DNA of 43,102 bases from Candidatus Kaiserbacteria bacterium (GCA_023264445.1 JAHFMN010000004.1:1-43102); one strand, 5' to 3'; positions 6,843-24,132 are shown, numbered from the stretch's first letter. The notes: generated from the sequence alone by a model not told the origin. A program made the numbers and translations.

Positions 6843-6868
6843 CCCTAAATGTGATATATTCTGCGAAT

Positions 6869-8092
6869 ATGCCCGAGGATAAGGAGCGCGACCATAAGAA
6901 GCTCGGTAGAGAACTCGATTTATTCACTTTCTCCGAACTCGTAGGGTCCGGTCTTCCGCTGTGGACACCGAAAGGGACTGTCTTGCGCCAGGAGCTCGAT
7001 ACATTCGTTTGGGAACTCCGGTCGAAATACGACTATCAGCGCGTTACTATTCCGCATATCACAAAGCGCAGTCTGTATGAGACTTCCGGCCACTGGGAAA
7101 AATTCGCCGATGATTTGTTTAAAATAACCGCACGCGAAGAACGCGAGTACGCGCTCAAGCCGATGAATTGTCCACATCATACGCAGATATTTGCACGTCG
7201 ACCGCACTCCTATCGCGAAATGCCACAACGATATGCAGAAACGACGATGGTATACCGCGATGAACAATCGGGAGAATTGAATGGCCTTACGCGAGTTCTC
7301 TCTATTACACAAGACGATAGTCACGTCTTCTGCCGTACGTCTCAGATCAAGGAAGAATTTCTTAAGATTTGGAATATCATCGATACCTTTTACAAGCAAT
7401 TTGGATTTACTGATCTTAAAGTACGGCTTTCCTTCCATGATCCAAAAGCACCTGAGAGGTATCTCGGTACGCCTGAAATATGGAAAAATGCTGAGGACGC
7501 TTTGCGGCAAATAGCCCAGGAGCGCGGCGCAGATTCTTTCGAAGCGCCCGGTGAAGCAGCATTGTACGGACCGAAACTTGATTTCATTGCAAGTGATTCC
7601 ATCGGCCGCCAGCACCAAGTCGCAACCATTCAGCTCGATTTAAATCTTCCTGAACGATTCGATCTGTATTGTATTAATGAAAAAGGAGAACATGAGCGAA
7701 TCGTCATGATTCATTCCGCAATTATGGGTTCTATCGAACGCTTCACTGCCGTCTTGCTTGAACATACGGCTGGAATTCTTCCGCTCTGGCTTGCGCCGAT
7801 ACAAGCGCGCGTACTCCCGGTGTCTGAAAAGCACACAGCATATGCGAACGAAGTTATGAGTGAATTGAAAACAGCGAATATTCGAACAGACATAGATGAT
7901 GCGAATGAATCACTTGGAAAAAAAATCCGCAATGCAAAAACAGAAAAAATCCCCTATTTAATCGTTGTCGGCGACGCGGAAGTTGAAGCAAAAACAATCT
8001 CAATCGACAGCCGCGATCACGGAAAACTCGACACGATATCAGTTGCGGACTTTATGGTCCGCGTGACAGACGAGATTAAGCGCCGAGCGTAG
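6869..8092 (+). CDS. thrS: Threonyl-tRNA synthetase lacking the N-terminal TGS/editing domains
   Basis: Begins at RDHKKLGRELDLF. Has LKPMNCPHH, YRDEQSGELNGLTRV, HSAIMGSIERF and the anticodon domain SLGKKIRNA. About 407 aa. Confidence 0.96.
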   Translation: MPEDKERDHKKLGRELDLFTFSELVGSGLPLWTPKGTVLRQELDTFVWELRSKYDYQRVTIPHITKRSLYETSGHWEKFADDLFKITAREEREYALKPMNCPHHTQIFARRPHSYREMPQRYAETTMVYRDEQSGELNGLTRVLSITQDDSHVFCRTSQIKEEFLKIWNIIDTFYKQFGFTDLKVRLSFHDPKAPERYLGTPEIWKNAEDALRQIAQERGADSFEAPGEAALYGPKLDFIASDSIGRQHQVATIQLDLNLPERFDLYCINEKGEHERIVMIHSAIMGSIERFTAVLLEHTAGILPLWLAPIQARVLPVSEKHTAYANEVMSELKTANIRTDIDDANESLGKKIRNAKTEKIPYLIVVGDAEVEAKTISIDSRDHGKLDTISVADFMVRVTDEIKRRA

Positions 8093-10115
8093 CGAGTGCA
8101 CGAGTGAGTGCAAGCTTCGCACCGGTGACGCCAGCAGCATAACTTGAATCGATCGCAGTCGTGAGCGAGGCGACGAGCTTTTCCAGAGTCGGAGTATCGA
8201 GGCGTGCGGTCAGTCGTGCGACATGCTGGTCGCAGGAAGTTCCGTCAACACGCGCGCGATATGCATCGTCAAGAAGGCAAACTGCCTCGGTGATGAGATG
8301 CTCCGGAGCACCATTGCCGCGCACGTGCTGTCGCAGTCCTGCAAAGACTGCCGCGCGGTCGCCCTCGAGAAGCGCCGCAATAAAACCGCGAATGTGTGCC
8401 GGCGCAGCGCTCGGTTCGACGGCGACATCAGCAGAAATCGTCCCGTCGTTTTCATGCATCGGTTCAACCTGCTCATACATCGGCTCGACGTTATGCTCCA
8501 CCTCCTCTGGAACCGGTTCAGTGGGTGCCGCATGCGAATGACGTGCGAGACCTTTCACGATGTCATCGATTGAGAGTGCACCGCCTTGTGCATAGGATTT
8601 GAATCCGATGTAGGGAGAATAGCCCCGTACAGAATCGGGGAACTCCCGCTGCAGTGGCGCTGCTGCGCGCATTGGAGCGGGAGCAGGCACGGGAACGGAT
8701 ACATTGAGCGCTGCTTTGATGCGGGCACTGAAGCTTTGTATACGACGATTCATTACCGGTGCCGCACCGAAGAGGACGAGATATGCAAGTGCAAGCGACC
8801 AGCCGATAAGCGCGATCCAGTAGATCACCGTACCAACAGGGCCGAGGTCAAGACCGGTGTATGGAATCTGCGAAAGATAGAGGAATGCAAGCGGCTGTGA
8901 GCCCACGTGCGGCAGAATGCCGAGAACGAAGTTAGGTGTGATGGTGCCACCACCGCCTCCACCACCGCCGCCTCCTCCTCCGGACGGAGGAGTGCCTCCA
9001 CCACCGCCGCCTCCGCCGCCAGAAGGATTAACCGTTACTGAAGCAGTACATGTTGCCGTCGCACCCGCTGCACTGGTAGCGGTGCCGGTGTATGTAACGC
9101 TCGTCGCCGGCGAGGCGGTGACACTCCCTGCAGCGACCGGCGAAACAGAACCGACGCCGTTATTGATAGAAAATGTCGCCGCGTTTGCAGTCGTCCACGA
9201 AAGAGTGATCAAATCTCCGACCATAATCGAGGAAGGAGCGGACGTGAGCGTACAGACCGGCGCGTTCGGCGCTGGAGGTCCGTATGAACAAGAACCATCA
9301 TCGACAGTCGCACTTGGATTGAAATTAGTTGCAGCAGAATCCGTGCATCCAAGGACGGGAGACGGCGGAGTCGTAGTAACCTCTATCGATACAGTACAGG
9401 TGACCAAACCACCAAGACCTCTCGCGGTACCGGTATAGGTCACACTCGCGGAGGGGGAGACGGAGATGCTTCCGGCGGCCACTGGAGTTACGGCAAAAAT
9501 GCCATGGTCGATTCCGAATCTAGTCGCGTTCGTCGTCGTCCATGAAAGCATCGCTGAAGAACCCGCCTGGATGGAAGAAGGATTTACTGAGAGCACACAG
9601 GTCGGTGCTGCAGGTGGAGGTGGAGAAGGCGGATAATCACAAGAACCATCATTGACGGTCGCGCTCGGATTGAAATTGTTCGCATTTGGGTCCGTGCAAC
9701 CGGAGATTGGTGCGGGCGAAGTCACGAGGGTTTCAGGACCGCCAACGTCGGGAGTGCCCACACCAGCATCGGGAGTTCCGGTGTCGACACCAACAGTAGG
9801 AGTTCCAGTATCACCGCCGCCGAAACCAACACTAGTTGGGGTGCCTGCGTCGCCACCGCCAAAGCCAGCATCGGTTGGTGAGCCTGCGTCGCCACCGCCG
9901 AAACCGACACCCGCGCCGGCATCACCGCCGCCGAAACCGGTATCGCCGCCTGCGTCGCCACCGCCAAAGCCAGCATCTCCTCCAGCATCACCGTCAGCAA
10001 GGGCATGGGGAATCCCAAACGGCACCAACTCATTGAGTTGTTGCAATACAAACCCTCGCGAAAACGCGAGTATCATAAAAAGTAATATGAGAGTGAATGA
10101 ATACCGGAAAGGCAT
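8076..10115 (-). CDS. Large cell-surface/membrane protein: signal peptide, FGGGD repeats, two GCTD..NFNPSAT..DGSC repeats with beta-rich Ig-like domains, Gly linker, IPYTG motif, TM helix, long cytoplasmic tail
   Basis: Start moved to MPFRYSFTLILLF (CAT 10113-10115) because the upstream extension overlaps the next gene. Domain order read from the translation. Confidence 0.85.
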   Translation of the reverse strand: MPFRYSFTLILLFMILAFSRGFVLQQLNELVPFGIPHALADGDAGGDAGFGGGDAGGDTGFGGGDAGAGVGFGGGDAGSPTDAGFGGGDAGTPTSVGFGGGDTGTPTVGVDTGTPDAGVGTPDVGGPETLVTSPAPISGCTDPNANNFNPSATVNDGSCDYPPSPPPPAAPTCVLSVNPSSIQAGSSAMLSWTTTNATRFGIDHGIFAVTPVAAGSISVSPSASVTYTGTARGLGGLVTCTVSIEVTTTPPSPVLGCTDSAATNFNPSATVDDGSCSYGPPAPNAPVCTLTSAPSSIMVGDLITLSWTTANAATFSINNGVGSVSPVAAGSVTASPATSVTYTGTATSAAGATATCTASVTVNPSGGGGGGGGGTPPSGGGGGGGGGGGGTITPNFVLGILPHVGSQPLAFLYLSQIPYTGLDLGPVGTVIYWIALIGWSLALAYLVLFGAAPVMNRRIQSFSARIKAALNVSVPVPAPAPMRAAAPLQREFPDSVRGYSPYIGFKSYAQGGALSIDDIVKGLARHSHAAPTEPVPEEVEHNVEPMYEQVEPMHENDGTISADVAVEPSAAPAHIRGFIAALLEGDRAAVFAGLRQHVRGNGAPEHLITEAVCLLDDAYRARVDGTSCDQHVARLTARLDTPTLEKLVASLTTAIDSSYAAGVTGAKLALTRALATLGA
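9805..9995 (-). repeat. Five coding GFGGGD(A/T)G repeats
   Basis: Repeated (c/a)ccgcc(g/a)aa(a/g)cc units on the + strand; translation GFGGGDAG x4 plus GFGGGDTG. Confidence 0.85.
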
Positions 10116-10167
10116 GTGTTTCCTATTTCCGAAATACCTTCCTCTGAAGATATGCCGGAAAAGGGAT

Positions 10168-10201
10168 CCGTTAGGAACCATGCGAGCATGATTCCTAACG
10201 G
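10168..10201. repeat. 34-bp intergenic near-palindrome (hairpin)
   Basis: ccgttaggaa-c-catgc-ga-gcatg-a-ttcctaacgg; fully paired on the minus strand with one G-U pair. Confidence 0.8.
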
Positions 10202-10230
10202 TCCGAAATGAAGTAGAATAGCTGTCGCTG

Positions 10231-11163
10231 TTACGGCGCAATTGCCGAAACCACCATCGTGCAGTTCTTCCATTCCTCGGGGAAAAGCCAGATACGACGA
10301 AATTCATCGGACACGGCCGGAGACTTGTAGTCTGCCGGCCAGATCGTCTCGACGATGTACGCCCGCTGAGTCGCGGAGAGGGCCTTGATGGCAACACCGC
10401 TTGCAAGACGTATCGTACCGAGATCCTCCGCGACGGTGAGCATCACCGGGTCGAGAAGACGTATGAACACGACGCTGTCCCCTGCGGGCGGTAACTTGTA
10501 CAGCTCGGGCCCAAGCGTTCGCGATACGGCGTCTGTCTTGTAGGCATCCGCGCTTCTCGTGTTCTTACCGTCGAGCTCGATGGGACGTCGCGCGGCACTG
10601 CTATCGCGATTTGCGGCGGCGGTAATCAAGACTTCCGCCCGTGCCCATAAGTCCGCAGGGATGTTCTTCTGCGGATAGCTCCTGGTCATGAACGTTCGTT
10701 CGTTTGGACAGCTGCCACTTGCGACCGGCGTTGGCGTCGGATTCGGCGTGATGATACTGCTCCAGTTGTTGCAGACGTCCGGAAGGACGACAACGTACGT
10801 TTTGTCCTCCCAGACCACCTGCCACCGCTCTGCCGGTGCGGCATATTCCATGCCACGCGTCGGCGAACCGAAAGCAACCACCACGTCTTGATGAACGACA
10901 CTCCTCTTTGAAATCATCGCCGAGAAGCGGTCCCCAACGAAGATACGGGTCTTCTGTCCCGGCTGCTCCGTTGCCTTTACGAGGAGATCAACGACCGGCT
11001 TCGGGAAGCCGAGCTTCGTAAACGCGCTCTCACGCGTCTTCATTGCTTCCGCACGCGAGGTCGCATAGGGATCAGCACCAAAGTGCTGCCATTTGAATTC
11101 GGCGTGAGCCGAATTCGCTAGCACCGCAATTGCGAGCGCCAGCATTGCCACGATGAACTTCAT
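10231..11163 (-). CDS. Secreted hypothetical protein
   Basis: 310-aa ORF with a classic signal peptide (MKFIVAMLALAIAVLANSAHA-E) and an AAGGAG RBS. No family recognised. Confidence 0.8.
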   Translation of the reverse strand: MKFIVAMLALAIAVLANSAHAEFKWQHFGADPYATSRAEAMKTRESAFTKLGFPKPVVDLLVKATEQPGQKTRIFVGDRFSAMISKRSVVHQDVVVAFGSPTRGMEYAAPAERWQVVWEDKTYVVVLPDVCNNWSSIITPNPTPTPVASGSCPNERTFMTRSYPQKNIPADLWARAEVLITAAANRDSSAARRPIELDGKNTRSADAYKTDAVSRTLGPELYKLPPAGDSVVFIRLLDPVMLTVAEDLGTIRLASGVAIKALSATQRAYIVETIWPADYKSPAVSDEFRRIWLFPEEWKNCTMVVSAIAP

Positions 11164-11254
11164 CGCTATTCTCCTTCATGTATGTCGCTCGCGCGACGGT
11201 TGAAAGAACTTCCTTCCTTGCTCCTTTTTGCGGGGAGCCACGCAATTTCCAGCG

Positions 11255-11917
11255 TTAGCTGGAAATTGCGTGGCTTTCAGCAAAGTCCGCTACGACAACG
11301 AAACGATCCGTCTTCGCACCAAAGGAATCGCACGTTGAGAGCGTCAGCACGCGGCCAGAGACCGCAAGCGGAATGCCTGCATCGCTCGCCGCGCTCTCCT
11401 TCGTCACGCTCCGCACGCGATAGGTGTAGACGATGTCAGATGAAGAAACGGCGATGACGTCTCCGACAACGAGCTTCTGGATGCCGTTGAATGTCTTGTA
11501 CGCCTGATTCTTCACCACGGGTAGATAGCTTGAATGGCCGAAGAGGACGACATTTCCATCCTCGCCAAGCTTCGCAGAGGTCGGATAACGCACTGCGCCC
11601 TTGAGCAAGGCCTGATCAAGTCCCTCGATTTCGGTCGTCACCGGATTCGCGATAATTGCCTGCAAGTTGATCGCAGAAATCTCTATCTTGAGCGGCAACT
11701 CGCTCACCGGCCGCGTAGCGACTGTCGTCGTGATCGCGACTGCGGCCGCGGGTGCAGGCGATGCGGGTGAAGCGTCTGGCAAGAGATCAAGACGCGCAAG
11801 TATAAGAACGCTCACCAGAAACACAAACGCAAAAATGCCGAGGAAGTTCCACTTCCGTGCATATGCTTGTTTACCGGCTCGAATGAGCCGTACAATCGCG
11901 TCGATACCGTTTTCCAT
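11255..11917 (-). CDS. Sortase family transpeptidase
   Basis: N-terminal TM anchor and catalytic triad motifs LFGHSS (His), LTLSTC (Cys) and DRFVV (Arg). Confidence 0.92.
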   Translation of the reverse strand: MENGIDAIVRLIRAGKQAYARKWNFLGIFAFVFLVSVLILARLDLLPDASPASPAPAAAVAITTTVATRPVSELPLKIEISAINLQAIIANPVTTEIEGLDQALLKGAVRYPTSAKLGEDGNVVLFGHSSYLPVVKNQAYKTFNGIQKLVVGDVIAVSSSDIVYTYRVRSVTKESAASDAGIPLAVSGRVLTLSTCDSFGAKTDRFVVVADFAESHAISS

Positions 11918-11936: not shown

Positions 11937-12011
11937 CACTATTCTGTCAATAATGTCAAGGGTTGAGTGAAATCACGAAAACTTGACATAAAAACTCACT
12001 CGTGTTATGTA
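11937..12011. promoter_or_regulatory. Divergent promoter region with back-to-back TTGACA -35 boxes
   Basis: TTGACA at 11983-11988 (+) and tgtcaa at 11945-11950 and 11954-11959 (-). atgtcaag...cttgacat forms an inverted repeat. The -10 boxes are imperfect. Confidence 0.45.
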
Positions 12012-12762
12012 TGTACCCATGCATGAATCGAGTCATTCACTCGTCCTAAACGCGCTCGCGGGAGCGGGGTTTGTCGCGCTTGTCGGCGGAGGCATGTGGC
12101 TCGCCGTCTATACGACACGCTACGTTCCAGATGTAGCGGCGCATCTTGGTTCGGCCGCTGTGTACCTCGGATCCGTATTCACTCCCGCTTCGGAGCAATC
12201 TTCCCTTTCAATCGTTCCGGCGCCTGTAGCGTCAACGACAATTTCGCTTGGCGGCACTTCTACAAGCGGCACTACGACAACTCTCCCATCGACTCCATCG
12301 AAGCCAGTCGCAACGACACCGGGCAATAAGACTAACGCCACTATTCAAATCGGCAACGCAACTACGACCCCTACCCTTTCGGGGCTTCCCGATCTGGTCG
12401 TAACCATCAATGTGATTGGCTACCTTGCAACCACGTCTGCGGAATCGTTTGTCGCAAGCACGACCGTTCCGTCTGGCGGCCGCCCTGCGGTCAACTTCAC
12501 CATACGAAATGCCGGCTCAAATGTAAGCGGCTCGTGGCGCTGGAGTGCATCCATCCCGACGCAAACGTCGTATATCTATATGTCGCAGCCACAGCAATCA
12601 CTTGCTCCGGGCGACAGTATCGACTACACGCTTGGCTTTGACCAGGCAAATCCGGGGGCTAATCAGCCGGTCTCTATTTCGGCAAACTTTGATCGCGCGG
12701 TTTCAGAATCAAATACCAACAACAATAACGCTTCGGCTACCTTTCTGATTATCGGCTCATAA
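12007..12762 (+). CDS. Membrane-anchored Ser/Thr-rich protein with a C-terminal CARDB-like Ig domain
   Basis: N-terminal TM helix, T/S/P linker, LPDLVVT...VNFTIRNAGS...VSESNTNNN (CARDB pattern). The start may be 12019. Confidence 0.8.
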   Translation: MYVPMHESSHSLVLNALAGAGFVALVGGGMWLAVYTTRYVPDVAAHLGSAAVYLGSVFTPASEQSSLSIVPAPVASTTISLGGTSTSGTTTTLPSTPSKPVATTPGNKTNATIQIGNATTTPTLSGLPDLVVTINVIGYLATTSAESFVASTTVPSGGRPAVNFTIRNAGSNVSGSWRWSASIPTQTSYIYMSQPQQSLAPGDSIDYTLGFDQANPGANQPVSISANFDRAVSESNTNNNNASATFLIIGS

Positions 12763-21380: not shown

Positions 21381-23291
21381 TTAGAATTCTTGGAAGAATG
21401 GCTCGACGTTCACGGTCACCTGCCGCACGATTGCCGCGCCGCCGCCGGTTGGGGTGCAAGAGATGCTGTAGGTCGCCTGGCCAGTCACGATAATCGTTGC
21501 CGATCCAGATATGCTTGACTGCGAGAAACCGTTTGGACCAGTAACGTTGCAGCTACTCATCAGAACCGAGCTCCAGGAGAGAATGCTCGAACCGCCCGAC
21601 ACCGTCACGCGCGGCGGTTCCGCACCGATGTTCACCTCCGGCTGAATCACCGTTACGGTTACTTGCGCCGGTGCCGAGGTACCCGACGCATTTGAACAGG
21701 TTATTTGGTACGTTGAGTCCTGCAAGAGCACACCGGTCGAGACGCCGCCCGGAGGATTGGTTGTCGCACCGCCCGTCGAGAATCCTCCAGCCGACGTGCA
21801 GGAAGTCGCATTGGTAGATGACCAGAAGAGCTTGGTCGACTGGCCTTGATTTATGGGGTTCGGGCTTGCAGAGAGTGTCACAGTCGGCGGACAGGTGGAA
21901 TTGGATGGGACAGCAGCGGAGCAAGAACTGTCGCATTGAACCGTGCCGGTATTCGTCTGGCCGCATGAATTTGCTGCGGACGAACAAACAGCTCCTTGGT
22001 TCGCGACGCATAGCACCGTGACCACCTTCCATGCTCCGCAGTTGTTGCCCTCGTTAGACTCATCAATAGAACCGGCCCATGAACTGTTGTTGTCAGCGCA
22101 CGCGCGCACGTTGTAGGTACCGGCTGCTGTAAAGGTGTATGAGCCAGAAAGACCGGTGGAAGCGCCGGAGCTAAGGGAGGAGACGGTGTTGGCATTTACC
22201 ATCGCAATCGTCACCGTCTTGGCGCTGTTAGCAACCTGGAAGATGTTCGGGAAATTCGAGGCCGAACCATCACCGATATTGGAGACGGTTGCTGAGAAAG
22301 ACTCGCTTTGTCCGGCCACAACAGACGTGGGAGAAATAGTAGTATCCCCTGCCGTGAGATCAGCGAGCGAAACCGGGATCTGAACGCAGCCGGTTCCGTC
22401 TGCGCTCGGCTCCGTTCCTGATGGACAGGTAACCACGTGACTGATGGTCGCCGTGTTAGATGTTCCTCCGGGACCGGTACAAGTATTGCTCCAGGTGTAG
22501 GTCCCTGGATAGGTGGGTGTCGCTGGTAGTGAGCCAGAGGTTCCTGCTGCCCATGGATTGGTAACGAGACCGTCCGGACGCACTCTCGTTACCGTGCAGG
22601 ATGTTGCGTTCGTCGAGCTCCATGAGACGGTAAACGTTGTGCCGGAATCGGCGGTGCTAACTGATTGACTGATTGAGGCAGTCGGAGCCACACAACTCGA
22701 ATCGGACGGGGGTGTCGAAGAACATGAACCATCGCACTGGATAGTGCCGTTCGATTGCGTCTGGCCGCAAGAATTTGGTGAGGATGCACACGCGGAACCG
22801 TATCCGGCCGCACATGCTGGACTCACGTACACTGAGCACGTCTCCATACCAATGACGTCACTGCCACCCAACGAATACACCGATATTACTTTGTTTTGTG
22901 TACCAGAAGAACCATACACGTTCGTCTCGTAGGTGCGGTAGTACGGCTCGGCATCAATGTGGTATATACCGGCATTGATGCCCTGTAGGGAATACGGGTT
23001 CGTAACAGTCCACGTAACGGTATCACCGACTTTTGGATTTGTTGGCGAAACTGCACAGATCGCAGAGCACATGCCCGTACCCGCATTATGTTCGTAGCCG
23101 GATTCGCAGGAGGCTGGGACTATTACACCGCCTTCCGCCCCCCGAGGAGAAAGCGACACAAAGCCTACTTCAGAAGAATGTACCGGCGTATGGGCCAGCA
23201 TCAGGGACTGCAAGGAGCCGATAACGCCAAGAAAAAGCAGGAGCGACCCGAGAGATACCGCCAGTTGCCGAGTTCGCAGGCGAACCTTCAT
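21381..23291 (-). CDS. Large secreted/surface protein with a CARDB-like domain, two six-Cys repeats and several beta-rich Ig-like modules
   Basis: Start MKVRLRTRQLAVSLG (TM/signal). ADLTAG...SATVSNIG...IDESNEGNNC is CARDB-like. Repeats of the form C..N.G..C.S..NSCGQT..GT.QCD.SCS...P.(D/N)S.C. Confidence 0.85.
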   Translation of the reverse strand: MKVRLRTRQLAVSLGSLLLFLGVIGSLQSLMLAHTPVHSSEVGFVSLSPRGAEGGVIVPASCESGYEHNAGTGMCSAICAVSPTNPKVGDTVTWTVTNPYSLQGINAGIYHIDAEPYYRTYETNVYGSSGTQNKVISVYSLGGSDVIGMETCSVYVSPACAAGYGSACASSPNSCGQTQSNGTIQCDGSCSSTPPSDSSCVAPTASISQSVSTADSGTTFTVSWSSTNATSCTVTRVRPDGLVTNPWAAGTSGSLPATPTYPGTYTWSNTCTGPGGTSNTATISHVVTCPSGTEPSADGTGCVQIPVSLADLTAGDTTISPTSVVAGQSESFSATVSNIGDGSASNFPNIFQVANSAKTVTIAMVNANTVSSLSSGASTGLSGSYTFTAAGTYNVRACADNNSSWAGSIDESNEGNNCGAWKVVTVLCVANQGAVCSSAANSCGQTNTGTVQCDSSCSAAVPSNSTCPPTVTLSASPNPINQGQSTKLFWSSTNATSCTSAGGFSTGGATTNPPGGVSTGVLLQDSTYQITCSNASGTSAPAQVTVTVIQPEVNIGAEPPRVTVSGGSSILSWSSVLMSSCNVTGPNGFSQSSISGSATIIVTGQATYSISCTPTGGGAAIVRQVTVNVEPFFQEF

Positions 23292-23322
23292 AGGTTGTAT
23301 ACCCAAAAGGTACCACGCGCCT

Positions 23323-24132
23323 TCAGCTAGCACTGCCAGTATCCCCAGTAGAGAGGAGGCGCATATTCTCCTCAAGCGAGGACTTCATTTTCAAAAACCC
23401 TTCGGTGTAGATGTCCGGATTGTTCCCGGGATACGCAGCTCCCCAACTCGCTTCAGACATTGTGGCGAGTATGGAGAGCGCCTTAGCGAATGCCTCCTTC
23501 GCGCCTTTCTTATCATCCATGTTCAGGAGCGCGACGCCGAGCGAGTTCCACAGCCATGGATTGTTCGGCTCAATCTTGAGCCCTGTGCGCGCAGTATCGC
23601 GCGCCTCTGCATACTTCCCTTCTTGGAAATAAATCCACGCGAGATCATTATTTCCCGCCCAGCTCTCCGGCTTCCACGCCAGAAATGCTTTGAAATCCGC
23701 CTCTGCTTTTGCCAGCTGGCCGCTGTAGCCGTAAATGAGTCCGCGCACGTAATACGAGCGGCCGAAGTCCGGATGAAGAGCGAGTTCTGCATTTATTTCC
23801 GCGAGCGCATCGGGAAAATCGCTGCGGATAAAATAGACGCGCGCTAGCTGATAATGCGGGCCTTCCATACTCGGATCAAGCGTGAGCGCTTTGCGGAAAT
23901 ATGCTTCTGCTTTTTTTAAATCATACGCGCCACCACCGAAATAATAGTTCCCCATATCAAAAAAGAGATTCGGATCGGATGGAGAAAGGACCGAGGCGAG
24001 CATGCCCGCGTGCAGCTGTTGCCATACGAACCGACCGGCCGCCGCGTTCTGTCTTGCTACGAAAATGCTTGCTATACAGAGCCCAAGTACGAGGATGCTC
24101 CAGAGAAAGGCTTTTTTAATTTCCTGTCGCAT
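23323..24132 (-). CDS. TPR-repeat protein with an N-terminal membrane anchor
   Basis: Tandem TPR-like helices (AEAYFRKALTLDP, YYVRGLIYGYSGQLAKAEADF, WNSLGVALLNM). TAAGAT 6 nt upstream. Confidence 0.88.
   Translation of the reverse strand: MRQEIKKAFLWSILVLGLCIASIFVARQNAAAGRFVWQQLHAGMLASVLSPSDPNLFFDMGNYYFGGGAYDLKKAEAYFRKALTLDPSMEGPHYQLARVYFIRSDFPDALAEINAELALHPDFGRSYYVRGLIYGYSGQLAKAEADFKAFLAWKPESWAGNNDLAWIYFQEGKYAEARDTARTGLKIEPNNPWLWNSLGVALLNMDDKKGAKEAFAKALSILATMSEASWGAAYPGNNPDIYTEGFLKMKSSLEENMRLLSTGDTGSAS

Follow-up and report, generated by a model that had tools for sequence, protein, structure and literature searches.

A conserved internal PYTG motif and a long C-terminal tail in a candidate sortase substrate of Kaiserbacteria

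In a 43,102-nt stretch of DNA from a Candidatus Kaiserbacteria bacterium (hereafter the window, with positions counted from its first letter), we identified one copy of a four-gene surface cassette of Parcubacteria (Kaiserbacteria type), which consists of a membrane protein with a CARDB domain, a dedicated sortase, a secreted protein and a single bitopic protein, here called the PYTG protein after its sortase-type motif. By the textbook rule a sorting signal ends the protein that carries it, and the remnant left after cleavage is waste or at most a small peptide. The PYTG protein carries its motif internally, ahead of a long conserved tail. The reading we favor, with a probability of about 0.55, is that the dedicated sortase would cut the precursor between the Thr and the Gly of the motif, giving a surface ectodomain and an independently working membrane stub; comparison of the sequences makes cleavage of the PYTG protein by the sortase, taken alone, a little better than an even bet.

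The PYTG gene lies within an open reading frame (ORF) at 8076-10406 on the minus strand. Its probable start is the ATG at 10115, since the stretch 5′ of this codon overlaps the preceding gene and the homologue in locus L068 begins at the equivalent Met, which gives a surface or membrane protein of 679 aa plus stop (8076-10115). A signal-peptide-like N-terminus, judged from the sequence (residues 1-40, 9996-10115; starting MPFRYSF and containing MPFRYSFTLILLFMILAFSRGF...HALA), is followed by a variable ectodomain (9021-9995) with acidic GFGGGD[AT]G repeats at 9804-9995, two short Cys-bracketed mini-modules (C..D..A.NFNPSATV.DGSC) and two Ig-like repeats (9378-9605 and 9030-9260). Next comes a poly-Gly linker of the form G9-TPPS-G12 (8946-9020), Gly-rich in most homologues too, which is spaced 26 residues from the pentapeptide IPYTG (residues 417-421, 8853-8867), where the proposed cleavage site is T420|G421. 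The sequence around the motif reads ...QPLAFLYLSQ-IPYTG-LDLGP and runs into a transmembrane (TM) helix (residues 427-454, 8754-8837; hydrophobic in the sequence and helical in the AlphaFold2 model), then the basic stretch MNRRIQSFSARIK. After the motif Gly there are 258 residues, ~225 of them beyond the helix. Searches of the whole protein against Pfam (E ≤ 0.1) and NCBIfam (E ≤ 1) returned no family match.

These data agree with a preliminary description of the stretch, which had noted IPYTG between a Gly-rich linker and a TM helix with basic residues, a protein running more than 200 aa past the motif, and an intact sortase about 1.1 kb upstream on the same strand; every one of these elements was found where it had been placed. 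The description had also taken the tail to be cytoplasmic, and the predicted topology, with a signal peptide, one TM helix and a positive-inside NRR, likewise puts it there.

The likeness to a sorting signal lies in order and spacing, because xPxTG, five residues, a TM helix and NRR follow one another as in such a signal. The canonical LPXTG substrates of Gram-positive bacteria (for example S. aureus protein A, a target of SrtA; PF00746, TIGR01167) resemble the PYTG protein in starting with a signal peptide and in placing xPxTG a short distance outside a hydrophobic helix that basic residues follow; their class A-F sortases, like the one here, are Cys transpeptidases anchored in the membrane that have a TLxTC motif and a catalytic triad of His, Cys and Arg. 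IPYTG conforms to the [LIV]PxTG-type pentapeptide of a cell wall sorting signal, and the residues after helix 427-454 (NRRIQSFSARIK) are positively charged, as in such a signal. When all frames of the window were scanned for [ILVMAFS]Px[TSA][GANS] followed by a TM helix, IPYTG was the sole site with a true xPxTG. Unlike a canonical substrate, the PYTG protein does not end soon after the charged residues but continues for ~225 conserved residues past the basic stretch, a folded domain included, and full-length family members extend ~56 to ~320 residues after the motif. The motif, moreover, is embedded in a conserved 60-aa block that takes in the helix, with Tyr strongly preferred at the x position.

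This block, the PYTG module (8730-8909, minus strand; HVGSQPLAFLYLSQ-IPYTG-LDLGPVGTVIYW...AYLVLFGAAPVMNRRIQSF), has a mean column identity of 70% in alignment A3, in which L, S, P, T, G, L, Y, W and Y are invariant. P, T and G of the motif are invariant in 119 of 120 close homologues, and in 119 of the 120 a motif of the form [IVM]P[YQK]TG is located 243-308 residues before the C-terminus. To these we added a locus set made up of 80 loci fetched from a scan of GTDB species and four fetched earlier, in which the motif occurs as IPYTG (70), IPQTG (6), MPYTG (2), VPYTG (1), IPHTG (1) and IPFTG (1); three loci were missed by the pattern, of which L068 has IPQTG, L050 has LPYTG and L078 is cut off within the motif. 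P, T and G are thus kept in every scorable related locus, as they are in 149 of the best 150 of 761 protein-cluster matches. The first position may be I, V, M, L, A, T or F, and at the x position Y far outnumbers Q, H, F, K and S. Lack of conservation of the motif among homologues would have counted against the original proposal; what we find is a fixed P, T and G with variation confined to positions 1 and 3.

The sortase gene (11255-11917, minus strand, 220 aa) ends 1139 nt upstream of the PYTG ATG on the same strand. Its product matches Pfam PF04203 (E = 7.8e-19; score 68.1 bits, cut-off 26.6) over positions 1-123 of the 125 in the profile and begins with a conserved cytoplasmic N-peptide identified by sequence comparison (..ARLIRAGKRAYARKWSF, also given as ..VRLIRAGKQAYARKW; 11849-11917), followed by a TM anchor (11780-11848). 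Alignment to 4d70, the nearest solved structure (E = 3.7e-5), and to 7f87 assigned the catalytic residues as His128 (LFGHSS, within 11528-11545), Cys196 (LSTCDS, TLxTC-type, within 11324-11341) and Arg205 (DRFVV, within 11291-11308). The triad is at least 90% conserved in 54 sortase orthologues, and with its catalytic residues intact and conserved the enzyme presumably has a substrate. The N-peptide is common to the sortases of the long-tail lineage, to which the window belongs, and is absent from those of two lineages with other tails, types B and C (L087, L089).

Natural deletion variants bear on which parts of the cassette act together. They were exposed by a search seeded with P0200, the sole motif-less match. 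One such protein, P0274 (331 aa), is a fusion: its residues 10-61 align with the N-terminus of the window's CARDB protein at 58% identity (E = 5e-16), and its residues 54-331 with the TM helix and tail of the window's PYTG protein at 56% (E = 3e-97). It fills the interval between gyrB and thrS alone, beside a gyrB 88% identical to that of the window, and the interval has no sortase, no middle gene, no ectodomain, no CARDB domain and no PxTG; four contigs carry it, two of them fetched, one from JGI and one from ENA. Sortase, ectodomain and motif vanish together in L095 and L096. P0290, P0298 and P0299 share the build of P0274 in another context, P0299 retaining just GYTG, and on the six contigs with P0290 no sortase was found within 10 kb. 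The junction of the CARDB-protein N-terminus with the TM helix and tail of the PYTG protein recurs in P0274, P0290 and P0299. In P0200 and P0260 the ectodomain is missing, a short non-secretory N-terminus common to both takes its place, and ISYAG and ATSTG stand at the motif position; in L091 no sortase lies between P0200 and the divergent gene 170 nt upstream. P0183, finally, consists of a sortase-type N-peptide and TM segment (E = 2e-5) fused directly to YPSQIPYTG, the TM helix and the tail. Within it ~75 residues, the FKSSAQSGALSVDDIVHGLSR island among them, are duplicated exactly (L092:1660-2940). Three further proteins, P0302-P0304, looked by eye like fusions of the sortase N-peptide to the post-TM tail, which BLAST did not support, and were set aside. 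Across these variants the sequences suggest that loss of sortase and ectodomain tends to be accompanied by loss of P and T from the motif: both residues are gone from the variants that have neither ectodomain nor sortase, while the flanking module residues and the tail persist. Since pieces of the CARDB protein and of the sortase are found fused to the stub, the N-termini of both are, by Rosetta-stone logic, plausible physical partners of it.

Several observations weigh against cleavage by this sortase. Of the 60 aa of the module, TM helix included, 9 positions are invariant and 12 more nearly so, and since this is far longer than a sorting signal needs, the conservation of P, T and G does not stand out from that of their surroundings. 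The PYTG protein gives no match to the curated anchor models PF00746 (Gram_pos_anchor) and TIGR01167, and the sortase stays below every NCBIfam class cut-off, its best score being that for class E (46.7 against 160 bits), with classes D, C, F, GN and B all scoring lower and the generic TIGR01076 reaching 30.1 against 39.35; both results also set the system apart from canonical LPXTG sorting. P0183 keeps IPYTG though its local sortase domain is deleted, most of the collapsed variants are known from few metagenomic contigs, and the whole neighborhood of the cassette (gyrB, thrS, dnaE, rnhB, nusB, rnc) is syntenic across these genomes.

The PYTG protein might instead be an uncleaved bitopic receptor or adhesin, a single chain linking a variable outer domain to a cytoplasmic one. 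The module would then serve as a juxtamembrane and TM structure for docking to membrane partners (the sortase-like and CARDB proteins), and the LPXTG likeness would be incidental or vestigial. Conservation that extends through the TM helix (YW...AYL), far past the pentapeptide, would be expected of such a protein, as would the silence of the anchor hidden Markov models and the IPYTG of P0183. It would also fit the presence of some cytoplasmic tail on every full-length, non-fragment match among the best 150, and the natural fusions in which a TM segment comes from the N-terminus of the CARDB protein or of the sortase, which point to intramembrane contacts. We nevertheless consider it unlikely, because the sortase triad is intact and conserved, the PYTG protein is the only xPxTG-plus-TM candidate in the cassette, near-canonical versions with short tails are known (P0234), and the P and T of the motif have been lost specifically where ectodomain and sortase are gone while the flanking module and tail stay.

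Because the housekeeping genes are syntenic too, adjacency alone is weaker evidence for a functional pair than in other settings. The sortase is upstream of the PYTG gene and on the same strand in 47 of the 47 loci that have at least 3.5 kb of upstream sequence, and an upstream sortase is present also where the tail is of an unrelated kind, in type B (L087, L088) and type C (L089). A search for further proteins with motif, TM helix and long tail and for their linkage to sortases had been proposed with the preliminary description; the homology searches made here yielded hundreds of relatives, together with this unbroken association. On the synteny of the region across Parcubacteria, housekeeping genes included, one could argue that the association is simply inherited, that the sortase serves substrates elsewhere, and that another enzyme or none acts on the PYTG protein. 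This is very unlikely in our estimate. In all four loci in which the thrS/dnaE flank has been replaced (L015, L026, L072 and L080), the sortase, the middle gene, the PYTG gene and the CARDB gene are still together; in L095 and L096 sortase, ectodomain and motif have gone together; and a scan of 1.06 Mb of the window and related loci detected no canonical C-terminal sorting signal that might mark another substrate.

If cleavage takes place as favored here, the fate of the inner fragment becomes the next question. In the lineages without sortase and ectodomain, the TM helix and tail are 45-57% identical to those of the window protein, and the family-invariant tail residues are largely kept (P0200 has D53E). 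Survival of this part alone under evident constraint implies that it has its own function, which lends comparative support to the earlier suggestion that the fragment left in the membrane is a functional entity. A different view would be that cleavage occurs and the tail serves just before it, in retention, localization, export pacing or sortase docking, after which the stub is degraded. An accessory element of this kind could well vary in type and length by lineage as widely as the tails do (~28 to 300 aa), and the conservation of the sortase N-peptide only in the long-tail lineage fits an enzyme-substrate contact before cleavage. A mere helper, however, should vanish along with what it helps, and in several lineages the TM helix and tail persist, at the identities given above, although ectodomain and local sortase are gone, so we regard a purely pre-cleavage role as quite improbable.

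To characterize the tail, an AlphaFold2 model of the 310-aa C-terminal module (C-module) was built with 49 homologues. The segment holding the motif is predicted to be disordered and is followed by a long helix at C-module residues 57-101 (predicted local distance difference test, pLDDT, 89-96); this helix and the tail are both highly conserved among homologues. Behind the helix lies a mostly disordered cytoplasmic linker (8397-8753, minus strand; pLDDT 48-60), in which the sole ordered piece is a short helix at residues 147-158, and the conservation profile reveals two islands in it. The first, VEPxYExVEP (8451-8489), is built of Tyr-containing repeats; the tandem acidic unit (N)VEP[IVM]YE occurs in 1-4 copies among homologues and may serve binding or modification. 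The second, RGYSxYxGFKSxAxxGALSIDDIVKGLxR (8541-8627), resembles in its G-Y-S-S-Y..F-K-S-F..D-I-V pattern the His region of the sortase (G-H-S-S-Y..Y-K-T-F..D-V-I, 11450-11545; BLAST E = 0.005 in a single comparison), a weak likeness that is probably due to chance.

The C-terminal part of the tail (residues 574-679, 8079-8396) is modeled as a bundle of 5-6 helices with pLDDT 88-98 (C-module residues 204-307). Foldseek comparison with the PDB placed clamp-loader subunits or their relatives at all of ranks 1-49, including E. coli gamma/tau, delta and delta′, RFC and the MgsA C-terminus, the best match being 8vat_B (E. coli gamma/tau; E = 7.2e-4, probability 1.00, 114 columns, root-mean-square deviation 3.0). 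The predicted bundle therefore resembles domain III (the collar) of clamp loaders. The resemblance is at the level of fold: neither phmmer nor a 54-sequence profile searched against PDB sequences recovered DnaX, HolA or HolB at E ≤ 10, giving chance-level matches only, and because sequence and profile searches do not recover a clamp-loader relation, we call the bundle collar-like at fold level only. In addition, the tail has no match in Pfam or NCBIfam, and no dnaX is present in the window. The PYTG bundle further differs from clamp-loader domain III in that no AAA+ modules precede it and in that it is tethered to the membrane through the TM helix and the disordered linker. As a best guess from the model, it probably mediates oligomerization or docking.

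The family is broad. With the C-terminal 280 aa as query, 241 homologues were obtained at 43-66% identity, with total lengths of 375-1144 aa, a span which indicates that a conserved C-module is joined to variable ectodomains; the N-terminal parts of the homologues are unrelated or differently repeated. All named homologues are proteins of metagenome-assembled genomes of Kaiserbacteria, Paceibacteria or Minisyncoccia annotated as hypothetical. Scanning one genome per GTDB species detected relatives in 218 stretches, and the A3 module profile run against 1.84 billion cluster representatives gave 761 matches at E ≤ 1e-3, of which 203 were at E ≤ 1e-10.

What is shared in this wider set is the block ...LSQ[IVA]PYTG[LF][DE][LF]GPxG[TN]xxYW-TM, behind which the tails differ. 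The long-tail type of the window (the 241-homologue family) has 240-320 aa after the motif with the collar-like helical bundle. Type B (P0221, P0197) mostly has 85-120 aa after the motif, up to ~160, and ends in DPFIxSQIxR, and type C (P0209) has ~100-125 aa and ends in APRIVINR. A near-canonical type (P0234, P0199) has a short basic tail of ~28 aa after the helix, and a hybrid type (P0238) has 295 aa after the motif, combining a collar-like domain with the type B C-terminal motif. Types B and C occupy the same gyrB-...-thrS position, with a sortase (44% identical) and a TM and CARDB-like gene, and this common position and gene content mark them as versions of one ancient cassette with a constant PYTG module and a lineage-specific tail. 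In L013 a second protein with the module has a cohesin-like ectodomain, LSQAPYTGLELG, a TM helix and ~30 aa before it continues in frame into the CARDB protein, which makes the module portable. Also encoded at this locus (L013:2620-6700) is a series of small secreted proteins whose sequences have cohesin-like and dockerin-like traits. The layout is not peculiar to a single protein but belongs to a Parcubacteria-wide module with tails of ~28 to 300 aa and with the CARDB protein as a fourth partner.

On these grounds a course of events can be proposed. The signal peptide would direct export of the precursor, which the conserved helix would retain in the membrane. The membrane-anchored sortase would then recognize [I/V/M/L/A]-P-Y-T-G five residues outside the helix and cut between T and G, within the stretch ...SQIPYTGLDLGP..., and the hypervariable Ig-like ectodomain would be passed to the wall or to another acceptor. 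The remaining product, G-LDLGP with the TM helix and the cytoplasmic tail, would stay in the membrane, where comparison with the deletion lineages suggests that it is a functional membrane protein in its own right. A probable partner of its membrane part is the CARDB-protein TM segment; the sortase may be another, through its cytoplasmic N-peptide and TM segment. Polymerization of the pilus type, with the middle or CARDB protein as a pilin-like acceptor, was considered and set aside, as neither has a sorting signal of its own or a recognizable pilin motif.

There is a precedent for a sortase-cleavage remnant with its own function in Streptococcus gordonii, where, as summarized in PMC11502775, the TM remnant (C-peptide) of an LPXTG adhesin is sensed by a histidine kinase after cleavage. 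That remnant, according to the same summary, is of ~30 residues and acts on the TM domain of the kinase, whereas the one proposed here would be of ~260 residues with a folded cytoplasmic domain; and compared with the S. gordonii circuit as summarized there, the PYTG cassette shows no evident kinase partner. Dedicated sortase-target pairs form a second point of comparison (SrtB-IsdC; SrtB-AbpA of oral streptococci, PMC4974636; class GN or marine sortase, TIGR03784). In these, as here, one sortase stands beside one substrate whose signal is a non-LPXTG variant. Their targets, in contrast to the PYTG protein, end soon after the helix, and the PYTG cassette differs further in having two more members, the conserved CARDB membrane protein and the rapidly evolving secreted protein, and in sitting among housekeeping genes. 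Full-text literature searches found no description of IPYTG in this sense or of this layout, and nothing tying sortase substrates of Parcubacteria or Patescibacteria to internal motifs.

For sortase biology, the finding is that a conserved, folded, apparently autonomous cytoplasmic protein has been placed behind a sorting-type signal across an uncultured radiation (761 protein clusters; 218 species genomes). If cleavage is true, the sortase would be a maturation protease that makes two proteins per gene and couples the outside of the cell to its inside. For the biology of the candidate phyla radiation, the cassette may mark, in Kaiserbacteria-type cells, a major hypervariable surface protein that is also the only substrate of the sortase, and for that reason it is a likely player in host attachment. 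The sortase and the YLSQIPYTGLDLG peptide make a readily testable enzyme-peptide pair, and the natural deletion variants already indicate which parts act together. A far-reaching combination of these ideas would be that PYT|G cleavage sends a hypervariable contact domain to the surface and creates or unlocks a conserved stub whose helix forms a complex inside the membrane with the N-peptide and TM segment of the sortase and the TM segment of the CARDB protein, as the natural fusions suggest, and that the stub domain is a true relative of the clamp-loader collar, oligomerizing or docking clamp-loader or replisome parts at the membrane and so coupling surface assembly to chromosome replication or the cell cycle of these ultra-small cells. 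This we regard as a long shot; a replisome link of the tail is low-probability speculation, and the nearby dnaE belongs to the general synteny.

The other cassette members lie around the sortase. On three long contigs the order is gyrB, CARDB protein (minus strand), sortase, one or two unassigned genes (169-374 aa), PYTG protein, thrS (minus strand) and dnaE. In the window, the membrane CARDB protein is transcribed divergently (12007-12762, plus strand; PF07705, E = 9.9e-6) and comprises an N-terminal TM and conserved juxtamembrane segment (12037-12186), a Ser/Thr-rich linker and the CARDB domain. It is conserved beside the sortase in almost every locus, remains part of the cassette where the flanks differ and is present in the type B and C lineages. 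A second CARDB-domain protein of 664 aa (21381-23375) lacks the PYTG module. A peptidoglycan-related enzyme, an SLT transglycosylase, is also encoded in the window and counts in favor of the reading preferred here.

Between sortase and PYTG gene lies the middle gene (10231-11163, minus strand), which encodes a 310-aa secreted protein with a signal-peptide-like N-terminus and belongs to a fast-evolving family. Most loci hold an ORF of ~280-555 aa at this position; L081 has just a 191-aa ORF, and none was found there in L041, L049 and L079. phmmer detected 28 of 48 mid-locus ORFs of at least 250 aa, and C131, N133 and C152 are invariant. The AlphaFold2 model of the window protein (pLDDT 85) found no fold match in the PDB (best E = 0.14). 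The minus strand has a terminator-like hairpin with a 15-bp stem and a T-rich tail (10168-10201) 52 nt ahead of the PYTG start codon, in the gap that follows the middle gene. Termination, attenuation and RNA stabilization are all conceivable roles for it, and because it separates the two genes they may not be strictly co-transcribed. The preliminary description is to be refined in this respect, in that both the middle gene and the hairpin intervene between sortase and PYTG gene.

Two minor observations concern the flanking genes. The threonyl-tRNA synthetase (6851-8092 in the window; compared with L003 and L089) is here a 403-413-aa form with no match to the editing domain (tRNA_SAD), and a longer form of 580-600 aa among relatives shows a weak tRNA_SAD match. 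At 789-1766 the window encodes a fusion of NusB with a NUDIX domain that is kept in related loci.

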